Assembly (NCBI GenBank): GCA_964406465.1
Contig: CAYORT010000012.1
Coordinates: 7,653 to 71,652 of the forward strand
DNA: 64,000 nucleotides
Origin: an uncultured Chryseobacterium sp.
GTDB taxonomy: Bacteria > Bacteroidota > Bacteroidia > Flavobacteriales_C > GCA-002722245
Direction: 5' to 3'
In this document: positions 52,604-57,875 of the stretch, one piece after another
How the letters are laid out: each line of letters opens with the position of its first letter
How positions within the stretch are numbered: position 1 is the first letter of the stretch
Program-made: the position numbers and the translations under genes
The notes under the pieces: model-generated
The model's database searches: none
What the model was told of the DNA's origin: nothing
Seen by the model: only the letters and a program-made list of their open reading frames with translations

Positions 52604-54640
52604 TTAGTATTTAATTACTTTGCTGAACTGGCTGGTTTGATTGCTGCTTGTAGTTTTAAGAATGTAAGTATTGGAACTTAGTTCTTGTAGGTTAATGCTA
52701 AAATTTACAGAATGAATATTGCTTTCACTTTTCACTAGTCGGCCCAAATCATCGAATAATTCATATTTTTCAATCACAAGCGTACTACTAATATTTACCG
52801 AAGAAGTGGTGGGGTTAGGATAAATGAAGGTATTGTTTTCAGTAAATATTTCTTCAGTGCTAACCGCATCGTTGGTGGCTGCCACCCAGCTTGAAGCAAG
52901 TGAATTATCGTAAGAAAGTCCTTTTAATTTTAAATGTGCCCCAACACCATTTGCAGCTGTTGGCCAAGGTGCAGTGCTTTCGTATTTAACGTAATCTACA
53001 ACGCTGCCATAGGCATCAGAAAGAATTAATTCTTCAGAGGTGTTTGATAAATTTCTACTGTATTCTCCAAAAGGAGTATAATTGTAAAATGCAGTAAAGG
53101 CAGCTGTATTGGATGTTAAATATATTTTTCCGTTAGCTGGAATGATTGAATTATTAGGGAAAGTGTAAGTTAAACCGAGCTTTCTAAAGTAGTAACCCGA
53201 AACATCAATTGGTGCATTGCTGTTGTTGGTGAGTTCAACAAATTCTAGCTGATTACTGGTGTAAGGAGCAGAAGGTAGTGGATTGTAATGAATTTTTGTA
53301 ATCACTAAGGGTTGCAAAGCAGGGTACGAGCATCCCGAACTGGTGATATTGGCGTTCATCCAAGTAATTCTGTTGCTTAGCCAATCTTTTAAATCGCTAA
53401 CATTATTATCTGGAGAACCTACTGATGACCATTTGGCGTCGTCTCTTAATTTGGCTTCAGATAAAACTGTCGATACACTATCTATAATGTGACTGATTTT
53501 AGCAAAGCTAAGTGCATTGTTGGTGGCATTTAGCTCTTGCCATCTTTTCACGAAATAACAGTGAAACGTTGGATTGTAGTACAAATCTTTCCAAAAGTTT
53601 GCTCCCACATTGTCACCATTGTCGAATTGAAAATCGTATGTGGTGCTTCTGTTTCCAAACATGTCGATACCGCAAGATAAGTTGAAATCCCAAACTGGTC
53701 CGGCTCTCAACTTTCCATTTCTATCCTTATGAAAAAAGGTACTAAACTGGTAGGCATCTACATTGGCCATCAATTCATTGATAATCATAAAGTCAATGAA
53801 GGAGGGCATGTCGATGATTGATGGAAATCCGTTGCTAACACTCGAATTATTGTTTGTTGCAGCTGTTTGTAGATTGGTGAATTGTGAGTGGATGTATTGG
53901 TCTTGATTGTTGGTGATTAGGCTGGGTTTCGGATTCTCATGCATGAAGTCGACATATTGGCTAGCGTGGTTGAGTACCGACCAAGCCGACATGTCGCCGC
54001 CAGTTGGTTTGTCGCATTTGGTAATGTAACCGCCGCTAAGAGCAGGAGAGGTGTTGTCGGCAGTAGTGAGTTCTGTAATGTTCACTCTATCGGTACCAAT
54101 TTTTATGCTTTCAGAAAAAAGATAAAGTCCTACATATTCATCATTAATAATTACTTCACAATATTGACCGCGGCATGCGTAATTACCAATGTTATTCGAT
54201 AAGGCATATGCCAAATAATCTCTGCTAAAAGTTGGGTCCCAAGCGAAACTATTTAATTTCCAGTCGTTGTCTTTAGGCATTCCTAATATTGAAACATTGT
54301 TGTTGCTAATGTTGTCGGCTTTGATGGTGCTAAGGCTGTAAGGTTTTTTGCTCAACCATTGAGAGGTAGATCCACGTACTTCTATTTTTATTCTTCCGGT
54401 ATAATTTAACAGCAGCGGATTGTTTTGGTCGCTCACATAATTTCTACTGCCATCAGGATGGTAAATGATTTTCATATCGGCACCAATCTTTGGGTCATCG
54501 GGAATATCTTGGTGGATGGTGGTGTTAGGATAGTAATCGGTACTAATAATAACGATAGGTAAATTACTGCTTGTAAATGTTTGTGCATGAATGGCGGTAC
54601 TTACTAAAAATAGTATAGCAATGAATAATAGTTTTTTCAT
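52604..54640 (-). CDS. CotH-family kinase with lamin-tail domain and T9SS type A C-terminal domain
   Basis: IEVRGSTS..KKPY, GMPKDNDW, YVGLY..SE.IK, AGPVWDFNL, EFVELTN and IYPNPT. Confidence 0.9.
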   Translation of the reverse strand: MKKLLFIAILFLVSTAIHAQTFTSSNLPIVIISTDYYPNTTIHQDIPDDPKIGADMKIIYHPDGSRNYVSDQNNPLLLNYTGRIKIEVRGSTSQWLSKKPYSLSTIKADNISNNNVSILGMPKDNDWKLNSFAWDPTFSRDYLAYALSNNIGNYACRGQYCEVIINDEYVGLYLFSESIKIGTDRVNITELTTADNTSPALSGGYITKCDKPTGGDMSAWSVLNHASQYVDFMHENPKPSLITNNQDQYIHSQFTNLQTAATNNNSSVSNGFPSIIDMPSFIDFMIINELMANVDAYQFSTFFHKDRNGKLRAGPVWDFNLSCGIDMFGNRSTTYDFQFDNGDNVGANFWKDLYYNPTFHCYFVKRWQELNATNNALSFAKISHIIDSVSTVLSEAKLRDDAKWSSVGSPDNNVSDLKDWLSNRITWMNANITSSGCSYPALQPLVITKIHYNPLPSAPYTSNQLEFVELTNNSNAPIDVSGYYFRKLGLTYTFPNNSIIPANGKIYLTSNTAAFTAFYNYTPFGEYSRNLSNTSEELILSDAYGSVVDYVKYESTAPWPTAANGVGAHLKLKGLSYDNSLASSWVAATNDAVSTEEIFTENNTFIYPNPTTSSVNISSTLVIEKYELFDDLGRLVKSESNIHSVNFSINLQELSSNTYILKTTSSNQTSQFSKVIKY

Positions 54641-54652
54641 AGTAAGTATAGT

Positions 54653-55321
54653 TTAATAGAAGGTGTGCGTGTAGCCCACCCCAATGACAAATTTTTGTGG
54701 CGGATTAACACTGTTGTAGTTGTTTTCATATAGAAAGTAAAATTCAAATTCTTGTACCTTATTTATTTCATAAAAAATGCCTGCGAAATATCTAGTTCGG
54801 TTAAATAAAAGAGCTTGTTTACCATTGAGTGGTAAATAGATTTCGGCAGCAACATAAGGCGAAATCCAAAGGCCACTATATTTAATCGTTACTTTATTTC
54901 TTTCTATAAAAGACGGTACATTTCCGTTTTCGTTGCTTAAGAAGTTGGTGTATTGCATTTGCAGCTGGTTGCGATAGGCTATTGAAAGATTGGTCCATTT
55001 CTTTTTAAAGGTTGCAGCAACATAATACCTGTGTCGAGCATCAGATTCTTCTCTGTTAAATCTTCTGTGTATATAAGCGTAATTTAAAGAAAGGGTGAAA
55101 TAATTATTTATTTTATAGGCAGCGCGAATGCTAGATTTAGCGTAGTATAGGGTAGAGGCGTTTTCATTAAACCGAATCTTTTCTGATAGTTCAATTTGAA
55201 AGCGACTGCTGATGTTCTTTTTAAGAGAAACACTTTGCCAAACTCCAAAATCATTGAACTGACCATGAACGACAAAACTCAGCAAAAGGAGTAAAAGTGA
55301 TATGTATTTTCTTTTACTCAT
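54653..55321 (-). CDS. DUF2490 outer-membrane beta-barrel
   Basis: Signal peptide, DFGVW, amphipathic strands and terminal GVGYTHTFY. Confidence 0.8.
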   Translation of the reverse strand: MSKRKYISLLLLLLSFVVHGQFNDFGVWQSVSLKKNISSRFQIELSEKIRFNENASTLYYAKSSIRAAYKINNYFTLSLNYAYIHRRFNREESDARHRYYVAATFKKKWTNLSIAYRNQLQMQYTNFLSNENGNVPSFIERNKVTIKYSGLWISPYVAAEIYLPLNGKQALLFNRTRYFAGIFYEINKVQEFEFYFLYENNYNSVNPPQKFVIGVGYTHTFY

Positions 55322-56861: not shown

Positions 56862-57445
56862 TAAAAATATTCGTAGGTATATTGCTTAGTGGAGATTAAT
56901 GAGCCATTGCCGTCGTAGGTCTTTTTTTGAAGCTTCAATCCTTTATCATTAAAAGTGATGCTTTGCTTTTTGATTATTTTATCGTTTGCATCGTAAGTAA
57001 TCACCGAATTTTTCTGACCAAGGTTATTGTATTCAAATACTTCTCTTTTTACAATTTTGTTTTCTACATCGTAAAGCGTTTCTTCAATCTTATCGTTTTG
57101 AGCATTGTATTTATAATTGATTCTTTTAAAATTCACTTTTGCTTTTACTTGATTCTCATTCTTGAAATCGGTTTCTTGGATTTTATTTCCATTGTTATCA
57201 TAAAAATAGGTTTCTCTTTTTTTTACCGTTTTGTCGCTGTTGTATTCGGTAGAAGAGAGAACGTGCCCGTCTTTATCGTAAACTATAACCGCTTCGGTGA
57301 AGCTTAGGTCTCTACCATTCACTTTTGTAGTGAGTGTTTCTGTAATGGTTTTTACGTGGTATTTCTTTATAGATTTTTTGTCTTGCACTAGGGCTGTGAG
57401 AGAAACAATTAAAACTAAAAGAGAAAAGTATTTTATGAATTTCAT
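56861..57445 (-). CDS. Exported protein with YD-like repeats
   Basis: Signal peptide plus repeated YD..GN / Y.YN motifs; 1-bp overlap with the VTC gene. Confidence 0.7.
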   Translation of the reverse strand: MKFIKYFSLLVLIVSLTALVQDKKSIKKYHVKTITETLTTKVNGRDLSFTEAVIVYDKDGHVLSSTEYNSDKTVKKRETYFYDNNGNKIQETDFKNENQVKAKVNFKRINYKYNAQNDKIEETLYDVENKIVKREVFEYNNLGQKNSVITYDANDKIIKKQSITFNDKGLKLQKKTYDGNGSLISTKQYTYEYF

Positions 57446-57452
57446 GACGTTT

Positions 57453-57875
57453 TTATTTTATGATATTGATGTCTTCTACTGTAACAATTTGACCTCTTTC
57501 GGTAATTTCCACTTCTTTTATTATTGCTACATCGGGTGAATATTGATTAACAGTACCGTTGTATGCGCCAGTAGTATCTCTTGAATAAGAATAGATTTTA
57601 TACTTACCTGGTCTTAAATATTTGAATTCGTAGGTGCCATCGTAATTGGTGTTTTGATTGTCACCGTAGGTAACACTGTTACCATATATAATATACACAT
57701 CTTCCTCAGGCGCATATTTTTGGTCGTAAGCTATTGTAACATTTTTATTGTAGTATTTGGCAAATACTTTACCTCTAATGCTCGATGTGCCCCCTTCGCC
57801 TTCTGATTTGGTGCAGCTGTTGAATGATAGAATTGAAATAATGCATAAAAGAGCACAGGAGGAAAATTGTTTCAT
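57453..57875 (-). CDS. Hypothetical lipoprotein (small Ig/carboxypeptidase-regulatory-like fold)
   Basis: Lipobox SFNSC and T..DGTYEFKYL.PG.Y.IY.YS. Confidence 0.7.
   Translation of the reverse strand: MKQFSSCALLCIISILSFNSCTKSEGEGGTSSIRGKVFAKYYNKNVTIAYDQKYAPEEDVYIIYGNSVTYGDNQNTNYDGTYEFKYLRPGKYKIYSYSRDTTGAYNGTVNQYSPDVAIIKEVEITERGQIVTVEDINIIK

Follow-up and report, generated by a model that had tools for sequence, protein, structure and literature searches.

A conserved five-gene envelope operon with a Vtc4-like protein in Bacteroidota, a candidate line for polyphosphate synthesis and export

Polyphosphate (polyP) in bacteria is ascribed to the enzymes PPK1 and PPK2. The present work concerns a six-gene operon on the minus strand of a 64,000-nt stretch of a freshwater Bacteroidota genome (the window, whose positions serve as coordinates throughout), which encodes, in order, a lipoprotein, an exported YD-repeat-like protein, a VTC-domain protein, a DUF4956 membrane protein, a DUF2490 beta-barrel and a CotH-family kinase. 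The conserved unit consists of the first five genes, and CotH is a frequent but optional neighbour. The five-gene core may form an envelope-spanning polyP synthesis and export line, with CotH working in the same pathway at the surface, a proposal that we put forward tentatively and hold to be possible rather than probable.

The closest described relatives of this operon are the VTC complex of yeast, which unites Vtc4 with Vtc3 or Vtc2 and with Vtc1 (structures 3G3Q/3G3R, 7YTJ and 8I6V), and a group of genes in Gram-positive bacteria. Gram-positive pel loci have accessory genes for CotH, a polyphosphate-polymerase domain protein and DUF4956 (Whitfield et al., bioRxiv 10.1101/768473), and the CotH, VTC and DUF4956 families also occur together in NELoc-2 of Clostridium perfringens (PMC2879425). 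For SIR_1592-1594 of Streptococcus intermedius, the VTC protein was modelled by the authors as Vtc4-like (bioRxiv 10.1101/2024.04.20.589940). The VTC-DUF4956-CotH trio is therefore already in print, as uncharacterised accessory genes. The VTC family is found in gut Bacteroides as well as beside the Pel biofilm loci of streptococci and clostridia, and a DUF4956 and DUF2490 gene pair of Bacteroides thetaiotaomicron is listed in an iron-stimulon table (PMC10434189). A 2026 preprint on Bacillus cereus describes PPK-independent extracellular polyP of unknown origin and states that a VTC4 homologue is absent.

Calling of open reading frames (ORFs) on the window gave six ORFs in tandem at 57875-52604, separated by gaps of 7, -1, -11, 0 and 12 bp along the operon; the 11-nt overlap of the VTC and DUF4956 genes, together with the spacing of the other ORFs, indicates coupled translation. 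For comparison, one genome per species was scanned, which yielded 80 loci, nearly all in metagenome-assembled genomes of Bacteroidota, with VTC proteins 46-60% identical to that of the window. The ORFs of these loci were called and searched with iterated hidden Markov models (HMMs), the CotH HMM covering the kinase domain alone, and the 51 loci that extend 6 kb or more to both sides were treated as a full-flank subset. Lipoprotein, YD, VTC, DUF4956 and DUF2490 genes were colinear in 42 of the 80 loci as called. The VTC gene was next to the DUF4956 gene in 68 loci (median overlap 23 nt) and next to the YD gene likewise in 68 (median gap +2 bp). A YD homologue was present in 74 loci and a lipoprotein homologue in 69, mostly directly 5' of the YD gene. 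In the full-flank subset, DUF4956, YD and lipoprotein genes were each found in 49 of 51 loci and DUF2490 in 48, and CotH lay within 10 kb in 28. In a separate gene call, which carried precomputed Pfam labels, the order is LTD/CotH/T9SS tail (T9SS, type IX secretion system), two small genes and one further gene without labels, then VTC, DUF4956 and DUF2490. The arrangement is beyond chance: this order is seen in dozens of related loci, with VTC proteins that share only 46-60% identity with the one in the window. The CotH gene stands directly upstream of the lipoprotein gene in 29 of the 80 loci, and its position downstream of the barrel gene in the window is unusual.

Departures from the common order were met among the related loci. 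In seven of them (L006, L015, L026, L042, L064, L066 and L075) the VTC gene is convergent to a DUF2490-DUF4956-YD-lipoprotein series, and upstream there is in addition a glycosyltransferase family 2 (GT2) gene, cellulose-synthase-like, with genes for a STAS protein and a LytTR regulator; the GT2 gene brings to mind the polysaccharide synthases that accompany the module at Gram-positive pel loci and in NELoc-2 of C. perfringens. Two Methanoperedens contigs (L012, 9980-11292; L039, 5910-7280) carry only VTC and a short DUF4956 gene, whose products are about 53% identical to the Bacteroidota proteins. This pair is flanked by a MoaA-like radical SAM gene on one side and an Lrp-like regulator on the other, in surroundings of archaeal appearance, and reflects either horizontal transfer into an archaeon or mis-binning shared by both. 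It is without the lipoprotein, YD and barrel genes, which fits a role of those three at the outer membrane.

The VTC protein matches the Pfam family VTC (PF09359) at 94.6 bits against a cut-off of 23 (E 8.8e-27), over profile positions 2-235 of 235; no second Pfam domain was found on its 254 residues, and no CYTH match at E<=0.01. Its AlphaFold2 (AF2) model, built on an alignment of 24 homologues, reached a predicted local distance difference test score (pLDDT) of 89.6 and a predicted TM-score (pTM) of 0.87. When this model was compared with the PDB by Foldseek, ranks 1-13 were all tunnel domains of yeast Vtc4, Vtc3 or Vtc2 (E 1e-11 to 2e-9, query TM-score (TMq) about 0.6), the best being the Vtc4 entries 3G3R, 8I6V and 7YTJ (E 1e-11, TMq 0.62). 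The ygiF entry and CYTH enzymes of the cyclase or triphosphatase type ranked below the Vtc entries, at E 1.5e-8 and weaker. By sequence, neither phmmer nor a profile of close relatives found anything relevant in the PDB, and a diverse VTC profile (A4) reached Vtc2 at 5e-5 and Vtc4 at 1.7e-3, with partial coverage. The family comprises 6074 representatives of 50%-identity clusters at E<=1e-3; among the 150 matches listed from this representative library there were close bacterial relatives only, with no bridge to eukaryotic Vtc4 and no fusions.

In triphosphate tunnel metalloenzymes (TTMs) of the hydrolase type, four glutamates occupy positions at which Vtc4 guides the growing chain with basic residues, and K458 of Vtc4 is catalytic (Martinez et al., PMC4641920); the Vtc4 mutant R264A/R266A/E426N is catalytically impaired (PMC9911596). 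Profile alignment to Vtc4 (3G3Q) pairs R31/K35 of the operon protein with R196/K200, K92/R94 with R264/R266, K109 with K281, and K119/R121 with K294/R296, and the alignment to Vtc2 spans the R160 strand and the E170-R171-x-T173-x-D175 strand. The residues so aligned are invariant or nearly so across 24-28 homologues, and those opposite Vtc4 R196, K200, R264, R266, K281 and K294 are invariant and basic. At R90-K92-R94-R96, where every alternate residue is basic, the register is ambiguous by two residues. An invariant E196-x-K198 on a strand and an invariant S222-K223-Y224 at a helix start resemble E426-x-K and S457-K458 of Vtc4, as a motif match only. R31 occupies the position of the first acidic-patch glutamate, like its Vtc4 counterpart, and K198 takes another such position by motif. 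Taken together, the modelled fold and the residue pattern assign the protein to the Vtc4 branch of the TTMs, and the residues mostly favour a polymerase over a hydrolase.

The partner encoded by the overlapping gene matches the full profile of Pfam DUF4956 (PF16316; 171 bits against a cut-off of 30.6, E 2.5e-50). In its AF2 model (pLDDT 67.6 overall, 75-85 in the membrane part), a signal peptide is followed by a disordered acidic linker with a KKKKK patch, five transmembrane (TM) helices at 60-85, 89-111, 115-133, 137-155 and 160-178, and a C-terminal beta-alpha-beta-beta, ACT-like domain with strands in 186-241. Invariant positions include the motif GAAFGLFAVFSMLRYRTE and K138, D139, M140, T141 and Y142. 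The positive-inside rule fits an N-out, C-in topology, in which the RSYRRKE loop and the invariant LRYRTENISAKD loop would be cytoplasmic; the invariant LRYRTE...K loop and the ACT-like domain are both predicted to face the cytoplasm. A fold search of the PDB with this model returned nothing at E<=1e-3: there were weak KH-like and ACT-like matches to the C-terminal domain, and chains of the VTC complex were not among the matches. The long form of the protein, with signal peptide, acidic linker and KKKKK patch (residues 24-58 in the window protein), is shared by 15 of 74 related loci, and the other 59 have a short form with an acidic N-tail of about 27 residues. Since the long form is limited to those 15, the lysine patch cannot be a general part of the mechanism, and it was set aside as a general polyP-receiving site.

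A relationship of DUF4956 to the MgtC family (PF02308) was also considered. CDD puts the membrane domain of the S. intermedius homologue in MgtC, a family in which an N-terminal membrane domain goes with an ACT domain at the C-terminus (bioRxiv 10.1101/2024.04.20.589940), and MgtC/YhiD and the operon protein do share a plan in which about five TM helices precede an ACT-like domain in the cytoplasm. Homology was, however, supported neither by Pfam, which gave no MgtC match at E<=10, nor by hhalign, which gave a probability of 0.09% against Escherichia coli YhiD, a member of MgtC by Pfam (5.4e-39); the hhalign test is a weak one, as a DUF4956 profile (A2) was set against the single YhiD sequence. 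DUF4956 was accordingly not classed with MgtC.

Of the proteins with predicted places beyond the inner membrane, the lipoprotein has a lipobox, SFNS-C21, followed by TKSEGEGG, and a beta-sandwich-like body. C21, G26, G28 and G29 are invariant among its homologues, and its matches to Pfam SdrD_B (0.006) and to the NCBIfam lipoprotein TIGR04134 (2.8e-6) are below cut-off. The YD protein is lysine-rich and contains seven YD/YN-x-x-G repeats by eye. Its match to Pfam RHS_repeat (PF05593) is sub-threshold (17.9 bits against a cut-off of 22, E 0.004), so that the label leans also on the visible repeats, and the YD protein of one relative has no Pfam family in the precomputed annotation. The barrel protein matches Pfam DUF2490 (PF10677) at 74.1 bits against a cut-off of 29.8 (E 1.5e-20) and ends in ...YTHTFY, with a terminal aromatic residue. 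DUF2490 is treated in the literature as an outer-membrane barrel or putative porin family whose function is open (PMC4827864; bioRxiv 10.64898/2026.07.29.741452), pore function being established for no member (PMC4827864). Across 70 homologues, its conserved columns comprise 16 K/R and 4 D/E. Basic residues are paired at i and i+2 (96/98, 106/108, 117/119, 141/143 and 175/177), an arrangement expected where side chains line one face of beta-strands, and the conserved basic set would fit an anion-conducting lumen. The isoelectric points (pI) are 9.6 for DUF2490 (homologue median 9.5), 9.2 for the mature YD protein (homologue median 9.09, n=72) and 9.5 for VTC, which makes all three more basic than the long ORFs of the window (median pI 6.45).

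The last gene encodes a protein with matches to Pfam CotH (PF08757; 169.6 bits against a cut-off of 23.8, E 1.6e-49), LTD (E 4.3e-15) and Por_Secre_tail (PF18962; 42 bits against 27, E 1.2e-10), and to TIGR04183 at residues 606-677 (35 bits against 23). It is made up of a signal peptide, legible in the sequence as MKKLLFIAILFLVSTAIHA-Q, a kinase domain at about 86-428, a lamin-tail domain at 443-554 and a type A T9SS sorting domain at 606-676, and is predicted to be type A T9SS cargo, exported through Sec and T9SS. A single-sequence phmmer search of the PDB found nothing, and a family profile was needed: built from 19 sequences of the window and the related loci, it matched B. cereus CotH (5JD9) at 6.1e-27, along residues 40-354 of the chain. 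Two aspartates that are unchanged in all 19, D295 and D318, align with D224 and D247 of 5JD9, and their spacing of 23 is that of the B. subtilis catalytic pair. The latter, D228 and D251, belongs to an enzyme that multiply phosphorylates serine-rich repeats (PMC7821199). As the aspartate pair and its spacing are kept, the operon kinase is predicted to be active, that is, catalytically competent. No serine-rich candidate substrate is encoded in the six-gene operon, and no paper on T9SS CotH proteins was found in the literature.

The features of the locus are collected in Table 1, in which the compartments of all six proteins are predictions; signal peptides are legible in the sequences of the YD protein, DUF4956, DUF2490 and CotH. 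An earlier note on this DNA had described six minus-strand ORFs with these positions and gaps and a terminator after cotH, and ORF calling and a hairpin with T8 at 52589-52572 agree with it. The same note had named VTC, DUF4956, DUF2490 and a CotH protein with LTD and T9SS signal, all recovered by Pfam or NCBIfam, as well as a lipoprotein and an exported YD-repeat protein; of these two, the lipobox and the signal peptide are legible, and the repeat family is matched only below threshold. As for the six genes forming one unit, five hold together in relatives, CotH is dispensable to the arrangement, and the unit there is often larger, with ASST-like, X25-like and LytS/LytTR genes.

Table 1. Features of the operon and its borders (window positions)
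Feature	Position	Strand	Remarks
Lipoprotein, 140 aa	57453..57875	-	First operon gene; lipobox Cys21
YD-repeat-like exported protein, 194 aa	56861..57445	-	Signal peptide and visible repeats; presumed periplasmic
VTC-domain protein, 254 aa	56097..56861	-	Pfam VTC; cytoplasmic (predicted); candidate polyphosphate polymerase
DUF4956 protein, 261 aa	55322..56107	-	Pfam DUF4956; inner membrane (predicted)
DUF2490 beta-barrel, 222 aa	54653..55321	-	Pfam DUF2490; outer membrane (predicted); putative porin family TC 1.B.81
CotH-family kinase, 678 aa	52604..54640	-	Pfam CotH, LTD and Por_Secre_tail; secreted (predicted)
Intrinsic-terminator-like hairpin	52572..52589	-	CCACCTATCAACAGGTGG then T8; 15 bp past cotH stop
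Divergent intergenic region, 307 bp	57876..58182	.	Between operon and ECF (extracytoplasmic function) sigma gene; presumed operon promoter region

In the 307-bp region the exact Bacteroidota -7 motif (TAnnTTTG) is absent from the operon strand. A sigma-70 promoter scan scored below shuffle expectation, and no promoter was assigned. The genes 3' of the operon are, by sequence, prephenate dehydratase-like, aminotransferase-like and prephenate dehydrogenase-like; they are unrelated housekeeping genes. Across the spacer lie genes for an ECF sigma factor, a putative anti-sigma protein and a TPR/PMT_2 protein. The sigma/anti-sigma pair was set aside as a component of the system, as it recurs in just 3 of the 80 related loci. 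The TPR/PMT_2 gene beyond it (59311-61500, plus strand) encodes 729 residues, with an N-terminal membrane region that matches PMT_2 (ArnT-like glycosyltransferase) weakly and C-terminal TPR repeats.

Most of the stretch is contained in twenty DNA runs from freshwater and aquaculture, and parts of it in river metatranscriptomes. In four RNA runs, contigs match patches of each of the six genes, at a depth of 2-4 and mostly with at least 99% identity, and RNA fragments span the junctions of YD with VTC (56749-56932) and of DUF4956 with DUF2490 (55220-55370). The operon is transcribed at a low level in situ, compatible with one transcript. Two RNA contigs (X26 and X27), from two runs, cross the terminator, at 52475-52728, into the start of the prephenate dehydratase-like gene; they show several base differences and a 1-nt deletion at 52565, and may represent leaky termination, a related strain or DNA in the libraries. 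The ECF sigma gene (58183-58752, plus strand) is covered 3-5x more deeply than the operon in the river metatranscriptomes. In four runs its RNA contigs all start at 58084-58100, which suggests a transcription start about 85-100 nt upstream of the gene, and its leader holds a GC-rich inverted repeat of 10/11 bp at about 58115-58143.

Further genes recur around the module in relatives. T9SS-sorted beta-propellers resembling arylsulfotransferases (ASST-like) are encoded in 45 of the 80 loci (for example L008, 3979-5667, and L027, 5397-6401), and X25-like T9SS proteins, which are carbohydrate-binding, in 17. Both kinds of gene lie just upstream of CotH and in many cases follow a LytS/LytTR two-component pair; a LytTR response regulator is present in 34 loci, often beside a histidine kinase, and Kelch-repeat T9SS proteins in a few. 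No ASST-like, X25-like, LytTR, Kelch or GT2 gene lies within the window. An ASST-like enzyme beside a phosphate-polymer system might be a group transferase. Other recurrent neighbours, namely cox genes, SulP, carbonic anhydrase, IspF, PorV/PorU/PorP, KsgA and an integrase, were rejected as partners, for they look like clade synteny.

A polyP synthesis and export line is the best available reading of the five-gene core because the Vtc4-like fold with its basic ladder, the translational coupling of VTC and DUF4956, the conserved gene order and the basic YD and barrel proteins all point the same way. In such a line, the Vtc4-like tunnel enzyme, itself soluble, would dock on the cytoplasmic face of DUF4956 and polymerise a phosphate chain from a nucleoside triphosphate, and DUF4956, probably as an oligomer, would pass the chain across the inner membrane. 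In the periplasm it would be handled by the basic YD protein and the lipoprotein, and the basic DUF2490 barrel would let it reach the cell surface. CotH-LTD, exported separately by Sec and T9SS, would act at the surface, either with the polymer, or upon it, or upon a protein or glycan found there; in relatives the ASST-like and X25-like T9SS cargo could serve the same pathway at that site.

Several points weigh against this reading. The position of the second acidic-patch glutamate is held in the VTC protein by D33, where Vtc4 has Thr, so that a hydrolase-like second metal site may be present. A profile of the C-terminal half of the VTC protein gave no computed alignment to Vtc4 among PDB sequences, and the equivalents of E426 and K458 are identified by motif only. 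A role of DUF4956 as a Vtc1-type channel was rejected, as the moderate-confidence model bears no likeness in fold or sequence to the Vtc1/Vtc4 channel helices; no solved structure matches it, and by these tests it is not a Vtc1-like channel. Passage through the DUF2490 barrel may run in either direction, and CotH is missing within 10 kb in about 45% of the full-flank relatives. In S. intermedius, Pel production and aggregation were kept after single deletion of cotH, VTC or DUF4956, with a small decrease in the DUF4956 mutant only (bioRxiv 10.1101/2024.04.20.589940). The metatranscriptome evidence, at a depth of 2-4, is thin and may include DNA carry-over, and no paper assaying a bacterial VTC, DUF4956 or DUF2490 protein was found in the literature. 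The earlier note had likewise proposed polyP synthesis and export, and that much stands as the best reading of the five-gene core. What it added on DUF4956, as the counterpart of the membrane helices that partner Vtc4, is not supported, no PDB fold match having been found at E<=1e-3. Its suggestion that exported polyP fuels CotH finds no direct support either: CotH lies nearby in only 28 of 51 loci, and the S. intermedius cotH and VTC deletions lacked a clear phenotype.

The foremost alternative, which we consider unlikely, is a phosphate store or uptake system of the envelope suited to phosphorus-poor freshwater. VTC and DUF4956 would then deposit periplasmic polyP as a reserve of phosphate and cations in the manner of acidocalcisomes or vacuoles, DUF2490 would be an inward phosphate or polyphosphate porin, and CotH, merely co-regulated, would use ATP on a substrate of its own before or during export. 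The eukaryotic VTC complex fills a storage compartment (PMC9911596, PMC4641920), and the basic ladder of the barrel suits inward phosphate conduction as well as outward. The organism was found in freshwater samples, and the optional occurrence of CotH agrees with its being a bystander. Against a store speak the presence of the VTC-DUF4956-CotH trio in monoderms, which have no periplasmic compartment, the finding that neither the window nor any of the 80 loci links a Pho-type regulator or phosphate transporter to the module, and the inclusion of CotH in the same transcription unit of the window, at a 12-bp gap.

It is distinctly unlikely, in our judgement, that the module phosphorylates a glycan or protein with no export of polyP at all. 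CotH would in that case be an ATP-dependent kinase, the VTC-like enzyme a tri- or polyphosphatase or another TTM, and DUF4956 an MgtC-like regulatory membrane protein, and jointly they would regulate or energise a pathway of matrix modification without producing a polymer for export. The enzyme itself offers arguments on both sides, for other TTMs with near-identical tunnel centres are hydrolases (PMC4641920) and D33 keeps one acidic-patch position, but Pfam assigns the protein to VTC and not to CYTH, every hydrolase TTM ranks below Vtc4, Vtc2 and Vtc3 in the fold comparison, and two acidic-patch glutamates are replaced, the first by R31, as in Vtc4, and another, by motif, by K198. Similarly, the CDD assignment to MgtC by the S. 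intermedius authors, with the plan of five TM helices and an ACT-like domain in the DUF4956 model, is offset by the hhalign result against E. coli YhiD. A matrix role is consistent with the position of the module beside polysaccharide synthases, at pel loci, next to a chitin-synthase-like gene of C. perfringens and next to GT2 in seven related loci, and with X25-like carbohydrate-binding T9SS proteins among the neighbours; it assigns no part to the barrel, the lipoprotein or the basic YD protein. The alternative named in the earlier note, that a surface glycan is phosphorylated, may yet hold.

That exported polyP serves as the phosphoryl donor of an extracellular CotH, where ATP is unavailable, appears very unlikely. 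The catalytic aspartate pair is intact, the protein is clearly exported by its sequence and its gene is linked to VTC-DUF4956 in several phyla, and the multiple phosphorylation of serine-rich repeats by B. subtilis CotH (PMC7821199) would call for a large supply of donor. The absence of CotH near the core in close to half of relatives, the lack of a reported phenotype of the S. intermedius cotH and VTC deletions and the want of a serine-rich candidate substrate in the operon all argue otherwise. We know of no protein-kinase-fold enzyme that uses polyP. Still less credence can be given to the most elaborate version, in which polyP is carried to the surface by way of DUF4956, a basic periplasmic relay and a phosphate-selective DUF2490, and CotH uses the polymer instead of ATP or attaches it covalently to a protein or glycan; we regard it as a highly improbable combination. 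Finally, that the genes are neighbours by synteny only, with no joint function, is barely credible: many flanking genes in relatives (cox, sulP, ispF and porV/porU clusters) are plainly clade-specific synteny, but in the five-gene core the order is retained and the junctions stay overlapping or abutting, at 46-60% VTC identity and with differing flanks, and the convergent and split variants still hold all parts within a few kb.

Should the synthesis and export reading prove true, a bacterial polymerase of the Vtc4 type would be a third route to polyP besides PPK1 and PPK2, and its coupling to a non-homologous membrane partner and a barrel would constitute the first dedicated export path for an inorganic polymer. 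If CotH were to use that polymer as a donor, an ATP-independent phosphorylation system would operate outside the cell. The question bears on the origin of extracellular and surface polyP, on phosphorus cycling by the abundant freshwater Bacteroidota and on how CotH-type secreted kinases could function in surroundings poor in ATP. What the window contributes is a further clean instance of a module already in print, and no new experimental handle; the family, with its 6074 cluster representatives, is so large and widespread that a function established in one tractable species would carry over widely.

Compared with known systems, the operon resembles several in part. Its CotH shares with Bacillus CotH (5JD9/5JDA) the domain, by a profile match at E 6e-27, both catalytic aspartates and their 23-residue spacing, whereas the Bacillus enzyme acts with ATP on CotB and CotG in the mother-cell cytoplasm and the operon protein is predicted to be exported and has a lamin-tail domain. 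The synthase-dependent export of exopolysaccharides (Pel, alginate, poly-N-acetylglucosamine and cellulose) offers an analogy of layout, not homology: in both cases an inner-membrane polymerase with a membrane partner, periplasmic proteins or lipoproteins and a dedicated outer-membrane barrel are encoded in one operon, but here the presumed polymer is inorganic, the proteins are not homologous and there is neither a TPR scaffold nor a cyclic di-GMP receptor. OprP and OprO of Pseudomonas are trimeric, 16-stranded uptake porins, selective for phosphate and pyrophosphate, which owe their selectivity to ladders of basic residues. DUF2490, a small to medium barrel with 16 conserved K/R columns, is likened to them by residue pattern.

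The Gram-positive pel loci and NELoc-2 have the same three families in a cluster, with a CotH that is predicted to be secreted and catalytically competent. They differ in belonging to monoderms, and at the pel loci the trio follows the Pel operon and has a DUF4832 hydrolase as a further partner; no pel locus is present here. The diderm version adds the lipoprotein, the YD protein and DUF2490, its CotH bears LTD and a T9SS tail, and CotH is optional in Bacteroidota. With the yeast VTC complex the operon has in common a protein of the same Pfam family, with the basic tunnel residues kept, and overlapping genes that pair this protein with a polytopic membrane protein, an arrangement reminiscent of how yeast couples synthesis to translocation. 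The operon protein has, in contrast, neither SPX nor fused TM helices of the DUF202 type, and an acidic residue at D33; there is no Vtc1 homologue, the membrane partner being DUF4956, whose five TM helices and ACT-like domain resemble no solved structure, and two periplasmic proteins and a barrel in the outer membrane come in addition. Lacking SPX and membrane subunits of the Vtc1 type, the operon is not a member of the VTC complex, and by analogy it would work like a split VTC system adapted to the diderm envelope.

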